Below, piece by piece: positions 1 to 22,644 of a DNA stretch of 37,196 bases (positions are counted from its first letter, which is position 1; each line of letters opens with the position of its first letter). The stretch lies in sequence record PZ445539.1; one strand, given 5' to 3'. The stretch comes from a phage. The translations under genes and the position numbers were made by a program. The notes under the pieces were generated by a model, which saw nothing but the letters and a program-made list of their open reading frames with translations, did not search any database and had not been told where the DNA came from.

Positions 1-1515
1 ATGACGCGAGGTGAGCGTGTAATAGCGTTCATTGAGCGCTTTTGCATCGTGCCGGAAGGCAAGCTTATCGGCCAGCCTATGCGGTTGGACCCCTTTCAGA
101 AAGATTTCATCCTGGCGGTTTACGACAATCCAGCCGGAACGGATATGGCGATCCTCAGCATCGCCCGAAAAAACGGTAAAACAGGCTTAATCGCTGGAAT
201 CCTCCTGGCTCACCTGGTGGGGCCTGAAGCGGTCCAGAACACGCAGATTGTCAGCGGCGCACTTAGCCGGGAACAGGCGGCCATCGTTTTTAACCTCGCG
301 GTGAAGATGGTCAACCTGAACCCTAAGCTGCAGGAGATTGTTCACATTACGCCAAGCGGAAAAAAGCTGATTGGTTTGCCGTGTAACGTCGAATACAAGG
401 CTTTATCCGCAGAAGGTAAGACGACGCACGGCCTTTCCCCCATTCTGGCCATTCTTGATGAAACCGGGCAGGTAAGGGGACCACAGGATGATTTTATCGA
501 TGCAATAACTACCGCGCAGGGGGCGCATGAAAACCCGCTGCTGATTGTTATCAGTACGCAGGCAGCAAACGATGCTGACCTGCTGAGCATCTGGATTGAT
601 GATGCGGTCAAATCGAAAGATCCGCACATCGTGTGCCACGTTTATGAAGCGCCAAAAGACGCTGATATCAGTAAACGCGAGTCCTGGCTGGCTGCGAACC
701 CGGCACTGGGAACATTCAGGTCAGAAAAAGACATGGCGCGCCAGGCTGAGAAAGCTGGCCGAATGCCAAGCTTCGAAAACACCTTCCGAAACCTCAACCT
801 CAATCAGCGCGTGTCTACCGTATCGCCGTTTATCTCCCGCAGCGTGTGGGAGCTTTGCGGAGAGATGCCGATTAACACGCCGAGGAAGTGGTACGCGGGG
901 CTGGATCTGTCAGCCAGGAACGACTTAACGGCGCTGGTTATCGCTGGTGAAGCAGATGATGGTGTTTGGGATGTTTTCCCCTTCTTCTGGACACCGCAAA
1001 AAACCCTTGAAGAGCGAACCAAAACGGACCGCGCACCCTATGACGTTTGGGTGAGAGAGGGGCTGCTGCGCACCACGCCAGGCGCTTCGGTGGATTACTC
1101 ATTCGTCGTTGCGGATATCGCTGAAATTATCGGTGATTTCGACCTTACCTCGATGGCTTTTGACCGCTGGCGCATTGACCAGTTCAGGAAGGATGCCGAT
1201 GCCATTGGGCTGAGCCTCCCGCTGGTCGAGTTCGGCCAAGGCTTTAAGGATATGGGGCCAGCTGTAGATACGCTGGAGTCTCTGATGCTTAACGGGCGCG
1301 TGAGGCATGGCATGCACCCCGTATTAACGATGTGTGCTGTGAATGCGGTGGTGGTGAAAGATGCTGCTGGCAACCGCAAGCTCGATAAGTCCAAAGCAAC
1401 AGGCCGTATTGATGGCATGGTCGCAATGACAATGTCCGTTGGTGCTGCTAATGGGGAAGTTACCGAACAGGGTGGTGACTTCGATGACTTCATTTTCCGA
1501 CCGCTGAGCATGTGA
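1..1515 (+). CDS. terminase large subunit (TerL); ORF begins at the window edge so the 5' end may be truncated
   Basis: 504-aa ORF with deviant Walker A-like motif (SIARKNGKTG) near the N-terminus; stop overlaps the portal start; terS lies at the other end of the window. Confidence 0.88.
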   Translation: MTRGERVIAFIERFCIVPEGKLIGQPMRLDPFQKDFILAVYDNPAGTDMAILSIARKNGKTGLIAGILLAHLVGPEAVQNTQIVSGALSREQAAIVFNLAVKMVNLNPKLQEIVHITPSGKKLIGLPCNVEYKALSAEGKTTHGLSPILAILDETGQVRGPQDDFIDAITTAQGAHENPLLIVISTQAANDADLLSIWIDDAVKSKDPHIVCHVYEAPKDADISKRESWLAANPALGTFRSEKDMARQAEKAGRMPSFENTFRNLNLNQRVSTVSPFISRSVWELCGEMPINTPRKWYAGLDLSARNDLTALVIAGEADDGVWDVFPFFWTPQKTLEERTKTDRAPYDVWVREGLLRTTPGASVDYSFVVADIAEIIGDFDLTSMAFDRWRIDQFRKDADAIGLSLPLVEFGQGFKDMGPAVDTLESLMLNGRVRHGMHPVLTMCAVNAVVVKDAAGNRKLDKSKATGRIDGMVAMTMSVGAANGEVTEQGGDFDDFIFRPLSM

Positions 1516-2789
1516 TGGAAGAACCTAAATACACGATTGACCTGCGAACCAATAACGGCTGGTGGGCAAGGCTGCAGTCCTGGTTTGTAGGCGGGCGTTT
1601 AGTCACCCCAAATCAGGGCTCACAGACGGGGCCTGTTTCGGCCCACGGACACCTGGGCGATTCATCCATTAATGATGAACGGATACTGCAAATTTCGACG
1701 GTTTGGCGCTGCGTGAGCCTGATTTCAACGCTCACGGCATGCTTACCGCTTGATGTCTTCGAAACCGACCAGAATGACAACCGCAAAAAAGTGGGTTTGA
1801 GCAATCCGCTGGCGCGACTGCTGCGCTACTCACCGAATCAGTACATGACCGCCCAGGAATTCAGGGAGGCCATGACGATGCAGCTCTGTTTCTACGGTAA
1901 CGCGTATGCACTGGTGGACCGCAACAGCGCGGGTGACGTGATCAGCCTTCTCCCGCTTCAGTCTGCCAATATGGATGTGAAACTCGTCGGAAAAAAAGTG
2001 GTTTATCGCTATCAGCGCGACAGCGAATACGCCGACTTTTCGCAGAGAGAGATTTTTCACCTTAAAGGCTTCGGATTCACCGGGCTGGTCGGCCTGTCCC
2101 CCATTGCTTTTGCCTGTAAATCGGCAGGTGTGGCAGTTGCGATGGAGGACCAGCAGCGAGATTTCTTTGCCAATGGCGCCAAGTCTCCGCAAATCCTCTC
2201 AACCGGAGAAAAAGTGCTAACTGAACAGCAGCGCTCGCAGGTCGAAGAGAACTTCAAAGAGATCGCCGGCGGTCCGGTTAAAAAACGCCTCTGGATTCTG
2301 GAAGCGGGCTTTTCCACATCGGCAATTGGCGTAACGCCGCAGGATGCCGAAATGATGGCGTCCCGAAAATTTCAGGTTAGTGAACTGGCGCGATTCTTTG
2401 GCGTACCGCCTCACCTTGTCGGCGATGTCGAGAAGTCAACGAGCTGGGGATCGGGTATCGAGCAGCAGAATCTCGGCTTCCTGCAGTACACGCTGCAGCC
2501 CTATATCTCCCGGTGGGAAAACAGCATTCAGCGGTGGCTTATTCCTGCTAAGGATGTTGGACGTATTCATGCTGAGCACAATCTCGACGGCCTGCTGAGG
2601 GGCGATTCGGCATCCCGCGCAGCCTTTATGAAGGCAATGGGAGAGGCAGGATTACGCACCATCAATGAAATGCGCCGAACGGACAACCTCCCGCCATTGC
2701 CGGGTGGCGATGTGGCAATGCGCCAGTCGCAATACGTGCCGATCACCGACTTAGGAACCAACAAAGAGCCCCGTAATAACGGGGCTTAA
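1512..2789 (+). CDS. portal protein (HK97-family-like)
   Basis: 425-aa ORF directly after TerL with overlapping start (GTG 1512 or ATG 1515); size and position typical of a portal gene. Confidence 0.85.
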   Translation: MMEEPKYTIDLRTNNGWWARLQSWFVGGRLVTPNQGSQTGPVSAHGHLGDSSINDERILQISTVWRCVSLISTLTACLPLDVFETDQNDNRKKVGLSNPLARLLRYSPNQYMTAQEFREAMTMQLCFYGNAYALVDRNSAGDVISLLPLQSANMDVKLVGKKVVYRYQRDSEYADFSQREIFHLKGFGFTGLVGLSPIAFACKSAGVAVAMEDQQRDFFANGAKSPQILSTGEKVLTEQQRSQVEENFKEIAGGPVKKRLWILEAGFSTSAIGVTPQDAEMMASRKFQVSELARFFGVPPHLVGDVEKSTSWGSGIEQQNLGFLQYTLQPYISRWENSIQRWLIPAKDVGRIHAEHNLDGLLRGDSASRAAFMKAMGEAGLRTINEMRRTDNLPPLPGGDVAMRQSQYVPITDLGTNKEPRNNGA

Positions 2790-2794
2790 TTTTT

Positions 2795-3484
2795 ATGGGG
2801 GCCGTAATGCCTGAAATCGTAAAAACGCTGTCTTTCGACGAGACAGAAATCAAATTCACCGGTGACGGGAAACAGGGGATTTTTGAAGGCTACGCCTCTG
2901 TTTTTAATAACACCGATTCCGATGGCGACATCATTCTGCCAGGGGCGTTTAAAAATGCACTGGCGAACCAGACCCGCAAAGTGGCGATGTTCTTCAACCA
3001 CAAGACGTGGGAGCTACCGGTTGGTAAATGGGACAGCCTGGCCGAAGACGAGAAAGGTCTGTATGTGCGCGGTCAGCTGACCCCAGGACACAGCGGCGCC
3101 ACCGACCTGAAAGCGGCAATGCAGCACGGTACCGTTGAGGGGATGTCGGTTGGCTTTTCTGTTGCGAAAGACGATTACAGCATCACTACCACCGGCCGCA
3201 TTTTTAAGAATATTCAGGCCCTGCGTGAAATCAGCGTTTGTACCTTCCCGGCCAACGAACAGGCTGGCATTGCAGCCATGAAAAGTGTCGATGGCATTGA
3301 AACGATCCGTGATGTGGAGAACTGGCTGAGGGATTCAGTCGGGCTCACCAAATCACAGGCAGTTGGGCTAATAGCCCGGTTTAAGTCAGCGATTCGGAGC
3401 GAGTCCGAGGGCGACGGAAACGAAGCACAAATCAACGCTCTGCTTCAGAGCATCAAATCTTTCCCTTCTAATTTAGGTAATTAA
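2795..3484 (+). CDS. prohead maturation protease (HK97 gp4-like)
   Basis: 229-aa ORF between portal and major capsid genes; alternative start at 2807 has a better GGGGG ribosome-binding site. Confidence 0.8.
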   Translation: MGAVMPEIVKTLSFDETEIKFTGDGKQGIFEGYASVFNNTDSDGDIILPGAFKNALANQTRKVAMFFNHKTWELPVGKWDSLAEDEKGLYVRGQLTPGHSGATDLKAAMQHGTVEGMSVGFSVAKDDYSITTTGRIFKNIQALREISVCTFPANEQAGIAAMKSVDGIETIRDVENWLRDSVGLTKSQAVGLIARFKSAIRSESEGDGNEAQINALLQSIKSFPSNLGN

Positions 3485-3486
3485 TT

Positions 3487-4644
3487 ATGTCTGAACTCGC
3501 TCTCATTCAAAAAGCTATCGAAGAGTCCCAGCAGAAAATGTCCCAGCTTTTCGATGCACAGAAAGCAGAAATCGAAAGCACGGGTAAGGTATCCAAACAG
3601 CTGCAGTCGGACCTTGCGAAAGTACAGGAAGAACTGACCAAATCCGGCACTCGCCTCTTCGATCTTGAGCAGAAACTGGCCTCCGGTGCCGAAAATCCGG
3701 GTGAGAAGAAATCCTTCTCCGAACGCGCAGCGGAAGAACTGCAGAAGTCCTGGAACGGCAGCAAAGGCAGCTTCGAGGCGAAAACCTTTAACAAGTCGCT
3801 GGGCAGTGATTCTGATTCTGCAGGCAGCCTGATCCAGCCGATGCAGGTTCCAGGCATCATCATGCCGGGCCTGCGCCGTCTGACCATTCGTGATCTGCTG
3901 GCGCAGGGCCGAATTTCCAGTAACTCCCTGGAATACGTCCGTGAAGAGGTGTTTACCAATAACGCCGATGTGGTGGCCGAGAAAGCGCTGAAACCTGAAT
4001 CGGATATTACCTTCAGCAAGCAAACCGCGAACGTGAAGACCATCGCCCACTGGGTGCAGGCGTCACGTCAGGTTATGGACGATGCGCCAATGCTGCAGTC
4101 ATACGTCAACAACCGCCTCATGTACGGTCTGGCGCTGAAGGAAGAAGGCCAGCTGCTGAACGGCGACGGTACCGGGGATAACCTGGAAGGTCTGAACAAA
4201 GTGGCAACCGCCTACGACACCTCGCTGAATGCCACTGGCGACACCCGCGCTGACATTATCGCTCACGCCATTTATCAGGTGACCGAATCTGAGTTTAGCG
4301 CTTCCGGTATCGTCCTGAACCCGCGCGACTGGCACAACATTGCGCTGCTGAAAGACAATGAAGGCCGTTATATTTTCGGCGGCCCTCAGGCGTTTACCAG
4401 CAACATCATGTGGGGGCTGCCGGTAGTTCCGACTAAGGCACAGGCCGCCGGTACCTTTACGGTGGGCGGTTTCGATATGGCCTCTCAGGTGTGGGATCGC
4501 ATGGATGCCACCGTGGAAGTCAGCCGTGAAGACCGCGATAACTTCGTGAAAAACATGCTGACCATCCTGTGCGAAGAGCGCCTGGCGCTGGCGCACTATC
4601 GCCCGACGGCAATCATCAAGGGCAGTTTCTCTTCTGGCTCATGA
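3487..4644 (+). CDS. major capsid protein, HK97 fold, with N-terminal delta (scaffold) domain
   Basis: 385-aa ORF; N-terminus MSELALIQKAIEESQQKM... and overall sequence closely match my recollection of HK97 gp5; coiled-coil N-terminal region. Confidence 0.93.
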   Translation: MSELALIQKAIEESQQKMSQLFDAQKAEIESTGKVSKQLQSDLAKVQEELTKSGTRLFDLEQKLASGAENPGEKKSFSERAAEELQKSWNGSKGSFEAKTFNKSLGSDSDSAGSLIQPMQVPGIIMPGLRRLTIRDLLAQGRISSNSLEYVREEVFTNNADVVAEKALKPESDITFSKQTANVKTIAHWVQASRQVMDDAPMLQSYVNNRLMYGLALKEEGQLLNGDGTGDNLEGLNKVATAYDTSLNATGDTRADIIAHAIYQVTESEFSASGIVLNPRDWHNIALLKDNEGRYIFGGPQAFTSNIMWGLPVVPTKAQAAGTFTVGGFDMASQVWDRMDATVEVSREDRDNFVKNMLTILCEERLALAHYRPTAIIKGSFSSGS

Positions 4645-4650
4645 TGGAGG

Positions 4651-4672
4651 GGGCGGGGTGACCCGCCCTTTT
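4651..4672 (+). terminator. intrinsic terminator-like hairpin after the capsid gene
   Basis: GGGCGGG-gtga-CCCGCCC stem-loop followed by TTTT. Confidence 0.55.
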
Positions 4673-4677
4673 AACGT

Positions 4678-5004
4678 ATGGCGATAGATGTTCTGGATGT
4701 AATTGGCCTCAGCCTGTTTAAGCAGCAGATTGAATTTGAGGAAGACGACAGGGACGAGCTGATCACCCTGTACGCTCAGGCAGCTTTTGACTACTGCATA
4801 AGCTGGTGCGATGAACCAGCTTGGAAAGTTGCAGCTGATATTCCTGCAGCCGTTAAGGGCGCCGTTCTCCTTGTCTTTGCTGACATGTTTGAACACCGCA
4901 CCGCGCAAAGCGAAGTACAGCTATATGAGAACGCTGCAGCAGAACGCATGATGTTCATCCATCGCAACTGGCGCGGTAAATCTGAACCTGAGGAGGGCTC
5001 CTGA
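4678..5004 (+). CDS. head-tail connector protein (gp6-like DNA-packaging/connector)
   Basis: 108-aa acidic ORF immediately after the capsid gene; position-based call. Confidence 0.55.
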   Translation: MAIDVLDVIGLSLFKQQIEFEEDDRDELITLYAQAAFDYCISWCDEPAWKVAADIPAAVKGAVLLVFADMFEHRTAQSEVQLYENAAAERMMFIHRNWRGKSEPEEGS

Positions 5005-5342
5005 TGGAACCTGGACGATTCAGGCACAGGGTAAAAATTCTCACCTTCACGACTTCGCGCGATCCATCTGGTCAGCCGGTTGAATCGTGGAGTGGTGGCA
5101 ACCCGGTCCCGGCTGAGGTGAAGGGGATCAGTGGCAGAGAGCAGATGTCTGGTGGCGCGGAAACGGCGCAGGCAACCATTCGCGTCTGGATGCGCTTCAG
5201 GGCTGAGCTGAACGCCTCTTCTCGTCTGGAAGTGCTTAGCGGCCCGTATAAAGGTCAGGTGCTAAATATCATCGGTCCTCCTGTAGCAAATGCGACCGGC
5301 AGTCGTCTGGAAATTCTTTGCAAAACGGGAGCTGAAAAATGA
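5004..5342 (+). CDS. head closure / head-tail adaptor protein
   Basis: 112-aa ORF with start overlapping the previous stop; position in head-tail joining block. Confidence 0.55.
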   Translation: MEPGRFRHRVKILTFTTSRDPSGQPVESWSGGNPVPAEVKGISGREQMSGGAETAQATIRVWMRFRAELNASSRLEVLSGPYKGQVLNIIGPPVANATGSRLEILCKTGAEK

Positions 5343-5788
5343 TTGAGACGAGCCTCGATTTTTCCGGGTTAAATGACATTGCAAAGGATCTGGAAGCGCT
5401 TAGCCGCGCTGAAAACAACAAGGTTCTGCGTGATGCCACGCGCGCCGGTGCCGAAGTGCTTAAGGAAGAAGTGATCGCCCGCGCTCCGGTGCGTACCGGG
5501 AAACTGAAAAAAAACGTGGTGGTGGTTACCCAAAAAAGCCGACGCCGCGGGGAAATTTCTTCTGGTGTCCACATTCGTGGTGTTAACCCGCGCACCGGGA
5601 ACAGCGATAACACGATGAAGGCGAATAACCCGAGAAATGCCTTTTACTGGCGATTCGTTGAAATTGGAACCGTTAACATGCCACCGCACCCTTTCATTCG
5701 TCCCGCGTTCGATGTTCGCCAGGAGCAGGCGACGGAGGTTGCGATCAGGCGCATGAACCAGGCCATTGACGAGGCATTAAGCAAATGA
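5339..5788 (+). CDS. HK97 gp10-like tail component
   Basis: 149-aa ORF, overlapping start and stop codons with neighbours; position-based call. Confidence 0.5.
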   Translation: MIETSLDFSGLNDIAKDLEALSRAENNKVLRDATRAGAEVLKEEVIARAPVRTGKLKKNVVVVTQKSRRRGEISSGVHIRGVNPRTGNSDNTMKANNPRNAFYWRFVEIGTVNMPPHPFIRPAFDVRQEQATEVAIRRMNQAIDEALSK

Positions 5789-6132
5789 CGGAAGAAGATC
5801 TCTATCCTCTGCTGGCGCCGCTGGCCGGAGGGCAGGTTTATCCCTACGTTGCGCCGCTCGGCAGTGACGGGAAGCCTTCAGTCTCGCCGCCCTGGGTAAT
5901 TTTCTCGATTATTACCGACGTGGCCGCAGACGTTCTTTGCGGTCAGGCTGAATCTGCCGTTTCTGTGCAGGTTGATGTCTATTCCAGCACCATCGCTGAA
6001 GCGCGCACGATCAGGAATATGGCGCTTGATGCTCTGCAGGTGCTGAAGCCGGAAAGCATTGTGAAAACGCCGGGCTATGAGCCTGATTTGCGCTATCACC
6101 GGGCAACGCTCGAATTTCAGGTAACCGTTTAA
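5785..6132 (+). CDS. tail completion / tail terminator protein
   Basis: 115-aa ORF immediately upstream of the major tail gene. Confidence 0.45.
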   Translation: MTEEDLYPLLAPLAGGQVYPYVAPLGSDGKPSVSPPWVIFSIITDVAADVLCGQAESAVSVQVDVYSSTIAEARTIRNMALDALQVLKPESIVKTPGYEPDLRYHRATLEFQVTV

Positions 6133-6148
6133 CCTTACCCACCATAAC

Positions 6149-6173
6149 AGACCGCCCCGGCGGTCTTTTTTTA
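6149..6173 (+). terminator. terminator-like hairpin upstream of major tail gene
   Basis: AGACCGC-cccg-GCGGTCT stem-loop followed by TTTTTTT. Confidence 0.55.
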
Positions 6174-6185
6174 TCTGGAGAAACC

Positions 6186-6656
6186 ATGACCAGTAAGTAT
6201 GAAGTTACAAAGGGGATGACCTTTGCCGTCTCCGACGCACCGGTAACCGCTGAGGATTTTAACGCCTCAGGTTTCCCGGGGGCTGGCATTACCTGGCTGG
6301 AAGCGGCCTGTGCAACAAAGGAGATCACCTTCACCGGCGGGCAGAAAGGGGATATCGACGTAACCACGCTTTGCTCAACTGAACAGGAGCAAACCAACGG
6401 CCTCGCCGCGCCAGCTGAAATGAGCATTACCCGTAACTGGGTTGGCGATGAAGCAGCACAGGAGGCACTGCAGACCGCTTACGAAAATGACGAACTGCGC
6501 GCGCTGCGTGTGGTGTTCCCGTCTGGTAATGGTTTCTACGTGCTGGTGGAGGTACGCCAGAGCTCATGGTCTGCTGCAACATCTTCCGTTGTTGGCGCTA
6601 CCTATTCTCTGCGTGTACGCGGCAAACCTAAACGCATCTACGCGTCTGGTTCCTGA
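6186..6656 (+). CDS. major tail (tube) protein
   Basis: 156-aa ORF with GGAG ribosome-binding site, bracketed by hairpins, directly upstream of the G/GT chaperone pair. Confidence 0.7.
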   Translation: MTSKYEVTKGMTFAVSDAPVTAEDFNASGFPGAGITWLEAACATKEITFTGGQKGDIDVTTLCSTEQEQTNGLAAPAEMSITRNWVGDEAAQEALQTAYENDELRALRVVFPSGNGFYVLVEVRQSSWSAATSSVVGATYSLRVRGKPKRIYASGS

Positions 6657-6677
6657 GCGGCTTCGGCCGCTTTTTTT
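6656..6677 (+). terminator. terminator-like hairpin after major tail gene
   Basis: AGCGGC-ttcg-GCCGCT (UUCG tetraloop) followed by TTTTTTT. Confidence 0.6.
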
Positions 6678-6710
6678 ATCCCTTCGATCATGTAACAAGA
6701 GAAAAATGAA

Positions 6711-7112
6711 ATGCCGCAAAAAACATCACAGAATTCATTACGCAACGTGGCGCTTACAGCATCGAAAGCCTATCGCACCAAAGAAGGTATCACGGTCCCT
6801 GAATGGGATGGCGCAAAGGTAACGCTGCGTGAACCCTCTGGCGATGCCTGGGTGAAATTCCGGGAGATCGTTAATCCCCAGCTCGCCGAGGGCGAAGAGG
6901 CACCGACGCTGACGGAGGCGGAAAAGTTTCTGCGTAACAAAGAGGCTGATGTGGTTCTGTTTATTGACGTTCTGCTGGATGAAAACGGCGAGCGAGTATT
7001 CAGCGATGAGGATCAGGAGCAGGTATCTAAAATCTATGGTCCTGTGCACTCCCGCCTGCTGGCTCAGGCCCTCAACCTCGGAATGAGCCAGGAAGAAGCG
7101 GGAAAGCCGTAA
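6711..7112 (+). CDS. tail assembly chaperone (lambda gpG-like)
   Basis: 133-aa acidic ORF ending GCG GGA AAG CCG TAA; contains slippery heptamer G GGA AAG at 7100-7106. Confidence 0.75.
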   Translation: MPQKTSQNSLRNVALTASKAYRTKEGITVPEWDGAKVTLREPSGDAWVKFREIVNPQLAEGEEAPTLTEAEKFLRNKEADVVLFIDVLLDENGERVFSDEDQEQVSKIYGPVHSRLLAQALNLGMSQEEAGKP

Positions 7113-7399
7113 AGCAGCCGCTGACCTTTTTCCTGATGTCATTGGCGCTACGGATGGGGCGCACTCTTCACGAACTGCGCCAGACCATGACCGCCAGCGA
7201 GCTCAAAATGTGGATCGAGTTCGACCGCATCAGTCCGATTGGTGACTGGCGCGCCGATGCACAGGCGGCGCAGATCTCCGTTGCAATGCTGAACTCTCAG
7301 GGTGGGAAATTCACCATTCCTGACGTGATGCTGAAGTGGGGAGAGCAGGAAGAGGTCGCAGAAGTCTCAGAACTCGAAAATTGGATATCCAGTCTTTGA
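7100..7399 (+). CDS. tail assembly protein T-like extension, expressed as G-T fusion by programmed -1 frameshift
   Basis: The -1 frame is open from 7100 through ORF 7136..7399 with no stop; heptamer identical to lambda G-T slip site; directly upstream of tape measure gene. Confidence 0.65.
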   Translation, partial: GKAVKQPLTFFLMSLALRMGRTLHELRQTMTASELKMWIEFDRISPIGDWRADAQAAQISVAMLNSQGGKFTIPDVMLKWGEQEEVAEVSELENWISSL

Positions 7400-18883: not shown

Positions 18884-20269
18884 ATGCTTTATAACACCGG
18901 CACCATCGCTATTAACGGAAATACCGCAACCGGCACCGGCACAAACTGGACGGCACCCGCCAGCCAGGTTCGCGCTGGCCAGACGATTATTGTCATGTCT
19001 AACCCGGTTCAGATGTTCCAGATTTCATCCGTGAACAGCGCCACGTCAATGACGGTAACGCCTGCTGCATCACCGGCGCTGAGCGGCCAGAAGTATGGAA
19101 TTCTTGTGTCGGACAATATTTCGGTCGACGGACTGGCGCAGGCCATGTCTCAGCTCATCAAAGAGTATGACGAGAATATCGGTGCATGGGAGACGTTCGC
19201 TACTACCTCAGCGAACCAGATTATCACTGTAACCATCAACGGTACCTCCGTGAATATTCCGGGTATTGGTGGCCTGGCTCGAAAAGGGGCAAACAGCGAT
19301 ATCACGGAGCTGAAAGGGCTCACTACTGCGCTTTCTATTGCGCAGGGCGGGACCGGGGCAACGAACGCTGCAGACGCTCGCTCAGGTCTAGGATTTACAA
19401 ATGGCGTAGTACCAGTATCTCTTGGCGGCACCGGCGCAACGAATGCTGCCGACGCTCGCTCAAACCTCGTTTTGGGAAGTAGTGCTACCAGGGACGCATA
19501 TAGCTCTTCTGGCAAAATGTTGTCAGAAGGAGATTTTGGGTTAGGCGGGGCGGCGTCAACCAACGGAAATGAGCAGGCATGCGGATTTTACAGAGCAGTT
19601 GCTGGTGCCAGCGGAAACCCATTAAGTAATTCAGGCGTCATACTCAACCACCAGGTCTACGGCGCTAATGCATTCACAAGAATTGCCACTTCCTATGAGC
19701 TACCTGTTCCCAGGATTTTTGTATCAACAAAGGTGAACTCTACCTATTACCCATACTATGAATTTTACACTACAGGTAACACTACTAAGGCCAGCGATGG
19801 GACACTTAAGGCCGCATCACCGGTCGCTCGCATTGTTACATCACAGGAGGAATGTCAGCGCGCGGATATCGACGAACCTGGCTTTATTTGGTGCGGCTGC
19901 GGAACGGCGAACGCCGAGGCCGAAGGAATAACTCTTTCTCGTCTCGAAGCGGGAGTTTACGTGCTGACCGGTTCTGCAGGGCTGGCATCGGAAGGCTGGA
20001 AGTTGCTGCCGCCAATGGACCCAGGTGGAATGGGAGAACTGGGCGTTGTTGAGGCAGAGCAAAACGACAATGGCGAGCTGACAATCCGCCTGTTCAAGAG
20101 CAAATACATGTTGAGCGATGAAGGTGAGATCATCAAAACCAAAGGTGAACTGATGGATGTCCCGGCAAACAGTTGGATCGATGTTCGCCTGGATATGCCA
20201 GAGAGCAGCATTTGGAATCATCGCCAGAAAGAAGCCATGGAACAAGCGGATAATAATTCTGGTTCTTAA
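18884..20269 (+). CDS. side tail fibre protein with tail-fibre repeats
   Basis: 461-aa ORF; tandem GGTGATNAADARS.LG repeats typical of phage tail fibre repeat motif; GAGG ribosome-binding site. Confidence 0.8.
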   Translation: MLYNTGTIAINGNTATGTGTNWTAPASQVRAGQTIIVMSNPVQMFQISSVNSATSMTVTPAASPALSGQKYGILVSDNISVDGLAQAMSQLIKEYDENIGAWETFATTSANQIITVTINGTSVNIPGIGGLARKGANSDITELKGLTTALSIAQGGTGATNAADARSGLGFTNGVVPVSLGGTGATNAADARSNLVLGSSATRDAYSSSGKMLSEGDFGLGGAASTNGNEQACGFYRAVAGASGNPLSNSGVILNHQVYGANAFTRIATSYELPVPRIFVSTKVNSTYYPYYEFYTTGNTTKASDGTLKAASPVARIVTSQEECQRADIDEPGFIWCGCGTANAEAEGITLSRLEAGVYVLTGSAGLASEGWKLLPPMDPGGMGELGVVEAEQNDNGELTIRLFKSKYMLSDEGEIIKTKGELMDVPANSWIDVRLDMPESSIWNHRQKEAMEQADNNSGS

Positions 20270-20278
20270 TTAAACATA

Positions 20279-20308
20279 GGCAGTCACGTAATTAATGACT
20301 GCCTTTTT
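20279..20308 (+). terminator. intrinsic terminator after tail fibre gene
   Basis: GGCAGTCA-cgtaattaa-TGACTGCC hairpin followed by TTTTT. Confidence 0.6.
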
Positions 20309-20309
20309 G

Positions 20310-20576
20310 TCACGCACCAACCTGGCGAACAGTCGGGAACTCAGAAACCAACCACATATCAGATTCTTCAAACATTTCCTCCAGCATACGGTTCAGTTTT
20401 TCCCGATCGCTTTTGCTGGCATCGCTATTCAGGCCGTTTTCCTGCATCGGCTTCACTTTCACCTCGGCATCAGGGAAAATCTGGTGCACTCGCTTCGTCA
20501 GCTCTGCCAGGATAATTTCTCTGGCGCCTGCCAAACCATCAACATTCCGCTTGTCATAAACCAGTTCAACGAACAT
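20310..20576 (-). CDS. DinI-like protein
   Basis: 88-aa acidic protein whose sequence pattern resembles DinI; GGAGG ribosome-binding site; two LexA boxes immediately upstream. Confidence 0.75.
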   Translation of the reverse strand: MFVELVYDKRNVDGLAGAREIILAELTKRVHQIFPDAEVKVKPMQENGLNSDASKSDREKLNRMLEEMFEESDMWLVSEFPTVRQVGA

Positions 20577-20595
20577 ATAAGCCTCCGGAAAACCA

Positions 20596-20635
20596 CTGTG
20601 TTTGTATACAGTATTTTTACTGTAAAAATAAACAG
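20596..20635. promoter_or_regulatory. two tandem LexA (SOS) boxes in the DinI-like promoter
   Basis: CTGT-N8-ACAG at 20596-20611 (aCTGTgtttgtatACAGta) and 20620-20635 (taCTGTaaaaataaACAGta). Confidence 0.7.
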
Positions 20636-20730
20636 TATCAAGGTGAGCGGAGCGCGAAAAGTGGAAGGGTTTTTGTTACCCTTAGTTACAAATAGAAAAA
20701 CCCCGGACCGTAAGATCTGGGGTTCTTTTA

Positions 20731-20757
20731 AAGTGCACGTGCATTTCACGTGCATAT
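20731..20757. promoter_or_regulatory. candidate integrase arm-type binding sites (left arm of attP)
   Basis: Repeated GTGCA(C/T) motif: AAGTGCACGTGCATTTCACGTGCATAT. Confidence 0.35.
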
Positions 20758-20847
20758 TTTTGTCTTTTCTCGGTCTGCGCACTGTCTGGTCAGTGTCCGT
20801 AAGTGGCTGTTTTTATTGCCGCTGTCCGGTTGCAGTCCTATCAAAAG

Positions 20848-20882
20848 TGGTGGAGCTGGCGGGAGTTGAACCCGTGTCCGAA
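20848..20882 (-). mobile_element. ssrA: attP core: 3'-terminal fragment of ssrA (tmRNA) carried by the phage
   Basis: Reverse complement reads GGACACGGGTTCAACTCCCGCCAGCTCCACCA, matching from memory the T-arm/acceptor 3' end of enterobacterial tmRNA; identity stops abruptly upstream; integrase gene adjacent. Confidence 0.7.
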
Positions 20883-20932
20883 TAATGATTAACCTATTGA
20901 ATATTAATGATTTCTGTTTTTTGAAATGCCTC

Positions 20933-20953
20933 AAGTGCATTTTAAGTGCATAT
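20933..20953. promoter_or_regulatory. candidate integrase arm-type binding sites (right arm of attP)
   Basis: AAGTGCATTTTAAGTGCATAT, same motif as at 20731-20757, on the other side of the core. Confidence 0.35.
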
Positions 20954-21006
20954 CGTGGTCCCTCTAACGTCCTGATTCCGTCCAACATTTTGAAATATTC
21001 ACCACG

Positions 21007-22254
21007 CTACTGAACTGCAGAAATGGCGGTTTTTCCGTCGTATTCAGCCAGATATCTACCGTAATTGCGGAACAGCATTTCCGGCCCTTTATGCCCCATC
21101 TGCCCGGCAAGCCAGAAAAGGTTTACGCCTTGGCTAATGTGTCTGGTGGCGAATGTGTGGCGGGTCTGGTACGGGTTACGGTATCGAACGCCAGCTTTTC
21201 TGAGTGTTGGCACCCATGCTTTTTTTCGTATTGCGTCGGCGTTCGCCCAAGGCTCACCCGTTTTAGGATCGCTGAAAATAAACTCACTTTTCATGAACGT
21301 GAATTGTTTCTGCGCCTGCAGCGCGGCCAGCGCCTCGCTGTTTAATTCTACTTTACGGGTACCGGCTTTTGTTTTGGTACCTTTAAGAACGCCAACCACA
21401 CTCGCCGCCTGAACGTGAGCTGTTTTAGCGATATTGTCGAGGTCGGGCCAGCGTAACGCACACAGCTCAGAGCTGCGTAAACCTGTATTGAATGCGAAAC
21501 GGAACAGGTTTTCCCATTCCTGATATCTGCAGCTCTGGTAAATAGCGCTGATTTCCGCTGGTGTGAACGGATCAACTTCGTAATCGTCAATATTCGGGCT
21601 GCTGTCGATCACGTGGTACCGACTCGCGCTGACAAGGGTTACCGGGTTGATTGTCAGCAGGCCGTCAGTCACCGCTTCATCTATGGCGCTGCGCAGAAAC
21701 GAGAGGTTATTCCTGATCGTTTTCAGCTTTGTTTTTCTGCTGGCGATCCAGTTTTTGAGGACCGCAGGGGTCAGTTCCGACACATGCATTTTGTGCAGCG
21801 CAGATAGCGCAGACAGGCACTTTTCATAACCGCCAATAGTGGAGGGCGAAAGGTTGCGGTTCTGGCAGATTTTCAGATACTCGTCCAGGTAGGACTTAAT
21901 ATTTTTGGTTTTCTTCACTACCCCGAACAGCTCCAGTTTTTTGGAGGTGGGGAAGTATTTCGCATAATCGAATGTGCCGCCGGCGATCTGGTTCTGTATC
22001 TCCCCCAGCAGGCGCTCGGCATACTTCACGCCGCGCGCGTTTGCTTCCATTCTGGAAAGGGGCTCCCGGCAGAGAACCCCTTTGTAGGTGAATGTGATCA
22101 CCAGGGTATCGCCAGTTTTATGCTGGCGAATGGTTACTCCTCTTGGGAGAGATAATGATCCTTGTTCTTTCTTGCCCACTTTGAAACCTCCGTTAAGTCT
22201 ATCCAGCGTTCTTTGACGCCATCGACTTTTAATACATGAACACCCTCTTTCCAT
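21007..22254 (-). CDS. int: tyrosine integrase (start codon uncertain, probably downstream of 22254)
   Basis: C-terminal catalytic region with conserved R..H..R..Y pattern (HTFATRHISQG...RNYGRY); adjacent to attP. Confidence 0.9.
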   Translation of the reverse strand: MERGCSCIKSRWRQRTLDRLNGGFKVGKKEQGSLSLPRGVTIRQHKTGDTLVITFTYKGVLCREPLSRMEANARGVKYAERLLGEIQNQIAGGTFDYAKYFPTSKKLELFGVVKKTKNIKSYLDEYLKICQNRNLSPSTIGGYEKCLSALSALHKMHVSELTPAVLKNWIASRKTKLKTIRNNLSFLRSAIDEAVTDGLLTINPVTLVSASRYHVIDSSPNIDDYEVDPFTPAEISAIYQSCRYQEWENLFRFAFNTGLRSSELCALRWPDLDNIAKTAHVQAASVVGVLKGTKTKAGTRKVELNSEALAALQAQKQFTFMKSEFIFSDPKTGEPWANADAIRKKAWVPTLRKAGVRYRNPYQTRHTFATRHISQGVNLFWLAGQMGHKGPEMLFRNYGRYLAEYDGKTAISAVQ

Positions 22255-22340
22255 AACCCCCTTTGTATCCGTTTGTTAACAGCTTCAACCGTTTCTCCGG
22301 CGTCCCGGCAGTAGGTTGAAAGTGGTACGCAATCAAGACT
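22134..22340 (-). CDS. xis: excisionase-like protein
   Basis: About 69 aa from the internal Met (MSLDCVPL...); basic small protein directly upstream of and overlapping int. Confidence 0.55.
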   Translation of the reverse strand, partial: SLDCVPLSTYCRDAGETVEAVNKRIQRGLWKEGVHVLKVDGVKERWIDLTEVSKWARKNKDHYLSQEE

Positions 22341-22644
22341 CATGACCGACCTCCCGCCCAAATGCCTGGGCATTTTCCAGTTCATTTGCCGCATAGATAA
22401 GTGCGTTGTGGTGCGCTCTAAAACCGCCATCAAGTTCGCTGGCCGCTCTCTTGCGCAGAATGTCGATCGCAGCCTGATCGTCGCTCTGGTAATCGGCGGA
22501 CTTTTCCGCCGAACTGGATGATAGTTCACCCAGCACCATCAACATATTCTCCGGATCGATGGGGATGGTGGTGAGCCCCAGCTGCTTGGCCTCCGTTGCT
22601 AGACGGGTCCAACGCTTAATAACTTCTAAAACAGGCTTATTCAT
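22333..22644 (-). CDS. hypothetical protein
   Basis: 103-aa acidic ORF in the leftward early operon. Confidence 0.45.
   Translation of the reverse strand: MNKPVLEVIKRWTRLATEAKQLGLTTIPIDPENMLMVLGELSSSSAEKSADYQSDDQAAIDILRKRAASELDGGFRAHHNALIYAANELENAQAFGREVGHES

Follow-up and report, generated by a model that had tools for sequence, protein, structure and literature searches.

We analysed a window of 37,196 nucleotides, the whole stretch of phage DNA deposited under record PZ445539.1, with a focus on the region between the late genes and the integrase gene. This region (positions 20600-21010) is 100% identical, in reverse orientation, to Escherichia phage LMessi (PP925823.1, 37,205 bp), for which the isolation host is E. 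coli; we use this name for the phage below. The GenBank record of LMessi carries no attP annotation and misses the DinI gene, and no paper on LMessi was found in the literature. It should be noted that two coding sequences of that record, both labelled "hypothetical protein" (20295..20885 and 20885..21013, plus strand), run over the attP described here and are probably annotation artefacts. The genes and features of the locus are as follows:

18884-20269, plus strand: tail-fibre gene, left of the core
20310-20576, minus strand: DinI-family gene (Pfam DinI, 2.5e-22), left of the core and on the strand opposite to the annotated coding sequence
20693..20730, no assigned strand: G+C-rich hairpin with U-runs on both strands, a candidate terminator in both directions that marks the outer limit of the left arm
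20733..20755, plus strand: left-arm GTGCAY cluster (GTGCAC at 20733, GTGCAT at 20739 and 20750), candidate arm-type sites of the integrase (Int)
20783..20839, plus strand: left-arm GTCY repeats (TGTCTGG at 20783, TGTCCG at 20794, TGTCCGG at 20823, AGTCCT at 20834)
20848..20874, minus strand: common core, identical to the 3'-terminal 27 nt of E. coli ssrA (…CGGGTTCAACTCCCGCCAGCTCCACCA)
20864..20870, minus strand: tmRNA T-loop TTCAACT, the proposed 7-bp overlap region, where the Rfam structure line places the T-arm
20859-20863 and 20871-20875, flanking the T-loop: T-stem inverted repeat GCGGG / CCCGT, proposed core-type Int sites
20875..20882, minus strand: extension of the ssrA similarity beyond the 5' end of the core, with seven matching bases after one mismatch
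20890..20902, minus strand: IHF-consensus-like site ATTCAATAGGTTA, which differs from WATCAANNNNTTR at one position and separates the core from the right-arm repeats
20933..20953, plus strand: right-arm pair AAGTGCATTTT / AAGTGCATAT, 11 bp apart, candidate Int arm-type sites
20958..20983, plus strand: three right-arm GTCC repeats (20958, 20969, 20980) with 11-bp phasing, in the stretch from the GTGCAT pair to the integrase stop codon
21007-22179, minus strand: tyrosine integrase gene (390 aa, GTG start; a 415-aa open reading frame extends back to 22254)
22134-22343, minus strand: excisionase gene (69 aa; phrog_2917, E=2e-40), overlapping the start of the integrase gene

The initial annotation had placed a tyrosine integrase next to an ssrA-like segment, and the open reading frame at 21007-22179 is indeed such a gene. 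It is transcribed toward the attachment site, and its stop codon lies 124 bp from the core. The protein combines an N-terminal Pfam domain Arm-DNA-bind_2 (PF12167; 7e-20, residues 37-105 of the 415-aa open reading frame) with SAM-like core-binding domains and a Phage_integrase domain (3.6e-17), and it matches the integrase family phrog_1 (2e-65). Homologues of the 69-aa open reading frame are annotated as excisionase (Xis) in phiES15, ΦNP and several E. coli prophages. The order of late genes, attP, int and xis is the classical lambdoid order.

The segment 20848-20882 reads TGGTGGAGCTGGCGGGAGTTGAACCCGTGTCCGAA on the plus strand and TTCGGACACGGGTTCAACTCCCGCCAGCTCCACCA as the reverse complement, and the annotated ssrA gene of E. 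coli MS 115-1 (363 nt) ends in TTCGGACGCGGGTTCAACTCCCGCCAGCTCCACCA. With the latter as the reference, the minus strand of the segment agrees with the 3'-terminal 35 nt of E. coli ssrA in 34 of 35 positions. The sole difference is at position 20875, where the phage has T and the host has C on the plus strand; in RNA this is a G to A change in the outermost pair, i.e., the first base pair, of the tmRNA T-stem. The similarity ends at 20882. The initial annotation had described a match of about 35 nt to the 3' end of tmRNA with one difference, and both the match and the difference are there; however, the block of functional identity is shorter, 27 bp in LMessi and 25-26 bp in relatives, and the residual stretch 20875..20882 is not conserved among them. 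The 25-nt core TGGTGGAGCTGGCGGGAGTTGAACC has a single exact match in the window (20848-20872), with 0 expected in shuffled sequences. With the Rfam tmRNA model, the 3' fragment by itself reaches 33.3 bits (E=1.4e-12); it stays under the gathering score of 47, since the rest of tmRNA is absent. ARAGORN reported no tRNA or tmRNA gene in the whole window; therefore, the segment is only part of a gene, and no tRNA gene is a better match to it than host ssrA.

Prophages of this type are found in ssrA itself. E. coli MS 115-1 and UMNK88 each carry a prophage, 97% identical to LMessi in the int-side DNA, that is inserted in ssrA and has the core at both junctions; the core is identical in attP, attL and attR of the two strains. 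The order in MS 115-1 is a CP4-57-type intA, the core, int, the body of the prophage, DinI, the left arm, the core joined to the rest of ssrA, and smpB. The attL of this strain consists of the phage left arm, TGGTGGAGCTGGCGGGAGTTGAACCCG, a host C and the rest of ssrA, and attR consists of the native downstream/terminator region of ssrA, the same 27 nt, a phage T and the right arm. UMNK88 shows the same partition, with the host C at attL and the phage T at attR. This segregation of the mismatch places the exchange inside 20848-20874 and leaves the tmRNA unchanged. Both lysogens have a complete, restored ssrA at the junction next to DinI (annotated with 363 nt in MS 115-1, and also annotated in UMNK88), and the displaced fragment lies at the int side. 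Thus, as seen in relatives with 97% identity, prophages of the LMessi type enter ssrA through strand exchange inside the 27-bp block, and the gene is regenerated. This is what the initial annotation had anticipated, including the presence of one and the same core at both prophage-host junctions; the single base that differs from tmRNA stays on the phage side, at attR, and never enters the host gene.

Unoccupied sites give the complementary picture. The joined host flanks of attR and attL form a sequence of 304 nt that is found end to end, without interruption, in 663 E. coli genomes; K-12 MG1655 is one of them, and its empty ssrA site matches these 304 nt with 99.7% identity. The query with the attachment region matches 1,413 of 5,426 complete E. 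coli genomes, and at least 80% of the stretch between the core and the integrase gene is present in 127 genomes. Among the matches listed, every one that overlaps an annotated ssrA ends exactly at window position 20882. Strain DX6 (NZ_CP126345.1, 1164910-1241031) has two tandem copies of one LMessi-like prophage at ssrA: the integrase WP_284564269.1 and one DinI accession are each present two times, at a spacing of about 38 kb, and ssrA closes the array. A regenerated attP joins one prophage copy to the next. The tandem reflects either double lysogeny in nature or a duplication introduced during assembly.

The host side of attR in UMNK88, next to ypjA, contains about 50 bp (…gttgtccttacaccgtccaatcatgat|TGGTGG) that resemble the left arm of ssrA phages of the LLS type, and an LLS-like stretch is found at the same side in WAT, 06-00048 and 25-07338. 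A tandem LLS-like prophage in UMNK88 was considered and ruled out, since ypjA and chromosomal genes directly follow; the stretch is a short relic, probably of an earlier occupant of ssrA.

We then compared the attachment sites and integrases of related elements. For LMessi, MS 115-1, DX6, phiES15, four other E. coli prophages, ΦNP, Kp4866-6 and LLS, attP or attR was anchored on the core and aligned without gaps, with columns counted from the CCA end. The identity to ssrA always begins at the CCA end and runs for 25 nt in ΦNP, 26 nt in phiES15 and 27 nt in most others. The shortest of these, 25 nt in ΦNP, defines 20848-20872 as the obligatory common block. The core of 25-27 bp is kept in relatives from four genera, whereas the flanks diverge. 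In tblastn searches with the LMessi integrase, identity was 93% for phi467, 91% for phiES15, 91% for the PhiR12 phages, 69% for Kp4866-6, 68% for LLS and 67% for ΦNP, with a coverage of 97-100%; the catalytic motifs are common to the family of ΦNP, phiES15 and LLS. Over three domain segments, the integrase of phiES15 is 88-94% identical to that of LMessi, and those of LLS, ΦNP and Kp4866-6 are 62-74% identical.

The core is flanked on both sides by clusters of GTGCA(C/T) repeats, as the initial annotation had pointed out; these are real, and their positions are conserved in relatives. On the plus strand there are three copies to the left and two to the right (20935 and 20946). The left copies at 20739 and 20750 belong to ACGTGCAT units 11 bp apart, and the cluster lies 112-134 bp from the core centre; the right pair is at +68 and +79 from the core centre, on the integrase side. 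Counting both strands, the 37 kb contain four copies of the extended unit AMGTGCAT, all of them at the attachment region, on one strand and as two pairs exactly 11 bp apart. It should be noted that this count is not above chance (4 versus 2.74 expected), that 12 other 6-mers on the plus strand also occur four times within 230 bp, and that 111 of 200 shuffled sequences show such a cluster. An argument from statistical enrichment of the GTGCA motif was therefore dropped, because both count and clustering match the shuffles, and the case for a function of GTGCAY rests on comparative evidence.

The comparative evidence is as follows. The left cluster is conserved in MS 115-1, DX6, phiES15 and CP-1639, with GTGTAT as the third copy in the last two. 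On the integrase side, two units with 11-bp phasing occupy columns 88-93 and 99-104 in all 11 related sequences, at the same distance from the core. In eight relatives these columns hold GTGCAY or GTACAT, despite the diverged DNA between the core and the repeats. The pairs of units on the integrase side are:

LMessi, MS 115-1, DX6: GTGCAT / GTGCAT
phiES15: GTGCAC / GTGCAT
STECUZB006, A8, 06-00048, WAT: GTGCAT / GTACAT
ΦNP: CGGCTCTTTT / CGGCGCTTTT
Kp4866-6: CGGATCCTTT / CGGCTCCTTT
LLS: GTATCTTT / GTACCCTTT

The left arm of LLS likewise has CGGCTCCTTT / CGTATCCTTTT with 11-bp phasing in place of the cluster of the LMessi group. The arm domain of the integrase (residues 1-80) is at least 89% identical to that of LMessi where the unit is GTGCAY-like and 62-67% identical where the unit differs, with substitutions in the predicted beta-sheet. 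The changes in the excisionase across the same relatives are mostly conservative. Such co-variation of repeat unit and arm domain would be the pattern expected of Int arm-type sites, and the comparison of arm-domain and excisionase divergence, as a means of assigning repeat families to proteins, is suggestive only. Taken with the analogy to lambda discussed below, we consider it probable, with moderate confidence, that the GTGCAY repeats serve as arm-type sites of Int.

Other elements of the two arms recur as well. An IHF-like element of the form YAANNNNTTGAW is found at columns 43-55 in most of the aligned relatives. At these columns TTGA(A/T) is present in six of seven sequences (ATGAT in Kp4866-6) and in three of four added ones (CTGAA in WAT), in differing surroundings. 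The IHF-like consensus is loose, with a background of 0.7 matches per kb, and is weak on its own. The (T)GTCY family has seven copies, all on the plus strand, distributed over both arms. The left copies form two pairs 11 bp apart (20784/20795 and 20824/20835) and are conserved in sequence and position in the LLS group, too; the family is conserved in all integrase subgroups, including those with other main repeats. Among the three right copies, phiES15 keeps two positions and has GTCG at the first, and GTCC or GTCG is present at similar columns in phiNP and LLS. The left-arm GTCY repeats are possible excisionase sites or further Int sites; by position, the copies at -83 and -72 resemble the Xis sites of lambda.

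At the outer edge of the left arm, the hairpin at 20693-20730 has a predicted free energy of -20.1 kcal/mol on the plus strand (z = -3.6) and -18.1 kcal/mol on the minus strand (z = -2.4). The LMessi stem contains a G·U pair on the plus strand, which is an A·C mismatch on the minus strand, and MS 115-1, DX6 and phiES15 have a perfect 9-bp stem at this place. A perfect hairpin of unrelated sequence occupies this position in LLS; judged from these predicted folds, it is the structure that is conserved rather than the sequence. In a lysogen the hairpin lies 118-155 nt downstream of the CCA end of ssrA, and the native ssrA terminator is displaced to attR. Plausibly, the hairpin takes over the termination of ssrA transcription in the lysogen.

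Different assignments of the arm repeats have to be weighed. The attP may be genuine while the GTCY repeats, not GTGCAY, are the arm-type sites; the left GTGCAY copies would then be part of a terminator or hairpin, and the right copies would bind the excisionase or another factor. The left GTGCAY cluster does form a 9-bp hairpin (-13.2 kcal/mol, z = -4.7) that is followed by ATTTTTGTCTTTT, a T-run, and the terminator scan flags it. The presence of GTCY in both arms, on one strand and with 11-bp phasing, its conservation in all integrase subgroups and the chance-level counts of GTGCAT fit such an arrangement equally. However, the right GTGCAT pair is a direct repeat only, with no hairpin, and yet it is the most conserved block of a diverged arm. 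At +68 and +79, past the IHF-like site centred at +29, this pair is also closer to the geometry of the lambda P' arm than the GTCC copies at +91 to +113. In addition, it is the 11-bp unit that changes together with the beta-sheet substitutions in the Int arm domain, whereas the excisionase changes only conservatively. We consider the exchange of roles possible, on the unlikely side, and keep GTGCAY as the candidate arm-type unit of Int.

Two further explanations concern the ssrA segment as a whole. It might be a passive scar of imprecise excision, or an ancestral relic, with the active attachment site elsewhere. A fragment with one mismatch and seven extra, non-functional matching bases could look like this, and the host flank of UMNK88 indicates that relics of earlier occupants do exist at the ssrA locus. 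Nevertheless, the LMessi fragment is exactly between the last gene of the late region and int-xis, which is the canonical position of attP; prophages with the same arms join the chromosome precisely at the core in over a thousand genomes; the 25-27 bp block is conserved across four genera while its flanks diverge; and ΦNP uses this block experimentally. A scar is therefore highly improbable. Expression of the fragment as a functional phage tRNA-like molecule or mini-tmRNA has still less in its favour and can practically be dismissed. A "global" Rfam alignment paired GGCUGA…CGACGG inside int with the 5' end of tmRNA, but the 3' fragment alone scores higher (33.3 versus 27.4 bits), so that the 5' part contributes nothing. 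A complete or two-piece tmRNA at 20848-21049 was rejected for the same reason, the 5' stretch being integrase coding sequence (LAEYDGK). ARAGORN finds no such gene, and no 5' acceptor strand, tag reading frame or promoter was found. With the evidence from lysogens and relatives, we conclude with high confidence that 20690-20985 is the attP of temperate phage LMessi, with an ssrA-derived core and a lambda-style Int.

The following course of events is consistent with this organization. Int would exchange strands between the phage copy of the core and the identical sequence in chromosomal ssrA. Exchange is bounded to 20848-20872/74, and within these bounds the T-loop and T-stem are most likely the place of exchange; the T-loop (20864-20870) falls within the 25-bp block common to all relatives. 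Integrases that target tRNA and tmRNA genes reportedly prefer a symmetric stem with a 7-nt loop, a preference ascribed to work by Williams from 2002 and 2003. Cleavage would occur at the edges of the T-loop, with the halves of the T-stem as putative core-type sites. After integration the prophage would separate the former 3' end of ssrA from the body of the gene, the phage copy would supply the last 25-27 nt of ssrA, and the displaced host 3' end would remain as a dead fragment next to int. The N-terminal domain of Int may sit on the GTGCAY repeats in both arms, with a bend at the IHF-like site (20890-20902) that would return the int-side arm to the core. The excisionase encoded at 22134-22343 would drive the reverse reaction, possibly via the GTCY repeats, and the hairpin at 20693-20730 may stop read-through from ssrA in the lysogen.

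Homologous ssrA sites are already known. ΦNP integrates at the 25-bp sequence TGGTGGAGCTGGCGGGAGTTGAACC of ssrA in C. rodentium and in E. coli K-12, and ssrA is regenerated, as demonstrated by PCR and sequencing (PMC6456863); for the attP and Int of ΦNP, integration into this 25-bp 3' end of ssrA is documented (PMC6456863, PMC3072379). The integrases of ΦNP and LMessi are about 67% identical overall (63% in the arm domain, 65% in the core-binding domain and 72% in the catalytic domain). The two phages share the 25-bp core, the order of xis and int, and an IHF-like site and two repeats with 11-bp phasing at equal distance from the core. They differ in the repeat unit (CGGCKCTTTT in ΦNP versus GTGCAT in LMessi), in the DNA that separates int from the core (cargo of about 2.9 kb with an AAA ATPase gene versus 124 bp) and in the length of ssrA identity (25 versus 27 nt). 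The Cronobacter phage phiES15 (NC_018454.1) has an attP annotated in its record, with a 26-bp core, and shares with LMessi the GTGCAC/GTGCAT repeats at the same positions in both arms; its host genus is different. The record of Escherichia phage LLS (PQ299149.1) annotates both an attP and a "tmRNA pseudogene". Its core is the same as that of LMessi, its integrase is 64-72% identical, and its repeat unit, GTAYCYTTT, differs. Unlike LMessi, phiES15 and LLS have extra genes between int and attP. The LMessi attachment site belongs to this ssrA-integrase family of ΦNP, phiES15 and LLS; the ΦNP site is published, and those of phiES15 and LLS are annotated, whereas the LMessi site itself is unannotated.

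The likeness to lambda is in the architecture. In both phages Int has separate arm-binding and core-binding domains, int is transcribed toward attP with xis upstream of it, and repeats, which in LMessi are candidate sites, lie in the two arms at comparable distances (about -130 to -110 on one side, +55 to +85 on the other). An IHF site or, in LMessi, an IHF-like candidate separates the core from the repeats on the int side. The right pair of LMessi is analogous to lambda P'1/P'2, as candidate sites. On the other hand, the arm-binding domain of LMessi is PF12167 and not of the lambda type, and all protein-DNA contacts at the LMessi site are predictions. The GTGCAT copies of LMessi are all in one orientation, unlike the arm sites of lambda. 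LMessi integrates into the 3' end of an RNA gene, which has to be restored, whereas the target of lambda is intergenic.

A number of other elements use the same target. CP4-57 and P4-type IntA islands, CP-1639 and other Stx prophages integrate in ssrA with regeneration of its 3' end, as LMessi does, and ssrA is a listed insertion site of Stx phages via CP-1639 (PMC8065619). The left arm of LMessi, including the DinI side, is common to CP-1639 (84.6% identity) and the PhiR12 phages (about 89% identity). The intA gene of CP4-57 is directly downstream of ssrA; in MS 115-1 it is a separate gene, located outside the LMessi-type prophage on the chromosomal flank of attR. In contrast, the LMessi int is at the prophage end far from the intact ssrA and encodes an Arm-DNA-bind_2 domain, which is not the P4-type arrangement; LMessi is not an element of the P4/CP4-57 type. 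The Islander description (PMC4383910) presents a textbook module for integration into tRNA and tmRNA genes, and the features given there, namely an adjacent integrase, a copy of the 3' end, a regenerated gene with a displaced fragment, and an empty site, are all found for the LMessi type.

These results mean little beyond correct annotation, and the only mildly new point is that, across the family, the lineages have repeat units of their own at set distances from a core that does not vary. They allow exact prophage borders to be set for a widespread group of elements that integrate into ssrA, and they indicate that lysogeny by the LMessi-type group leaves tmRNA unaltered. The aligned attP family also provides natural variants for mapping the arm-site specificity of PF12167-type integrases. 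One tentative and rather doubtful extension is an "arm code", in which lineage-specific 11-bp repeats (GTGCAY in LMessi, CGGNNCYTTT in ΦNP and Kp4866-6, GTAYCYTTT in LLS) would keep the occupants of ssrA orthogonal, whether these reside there together or one after another. If this were true, each Int would assemble on its own arms only, tandem elements would excise cleanly without scrambling, and the code could be swapped to re-target or insulate integrases.

Several minor observations were made on the related records. In phi467 (LN997803.1), the integrase that is 93% identical to that of LMessi is split into two coding sequences by a frameshift, and no ssrA core was found within 1.5 kb downstream of this frameshifted int. 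In Kp4866-6 (OK490421.1, flagged "UNVERIFIED"), the DNA past the core is host DNA that comprises the terminator region of ssrA and the start of a P4-type integrase open reading frame; evidently, this record was cut from a lysogen chromosome and overshoots attR. Finally, all integrases of the LMessi family, including the experimentally active Int of ΦNP, have YQTRHTFAT at about residues 333-341. Recombinases of the XerD type have HxxRHxFAT at box II; thus, the first box II histidine is replaced by tyrosine in the LMessi family.
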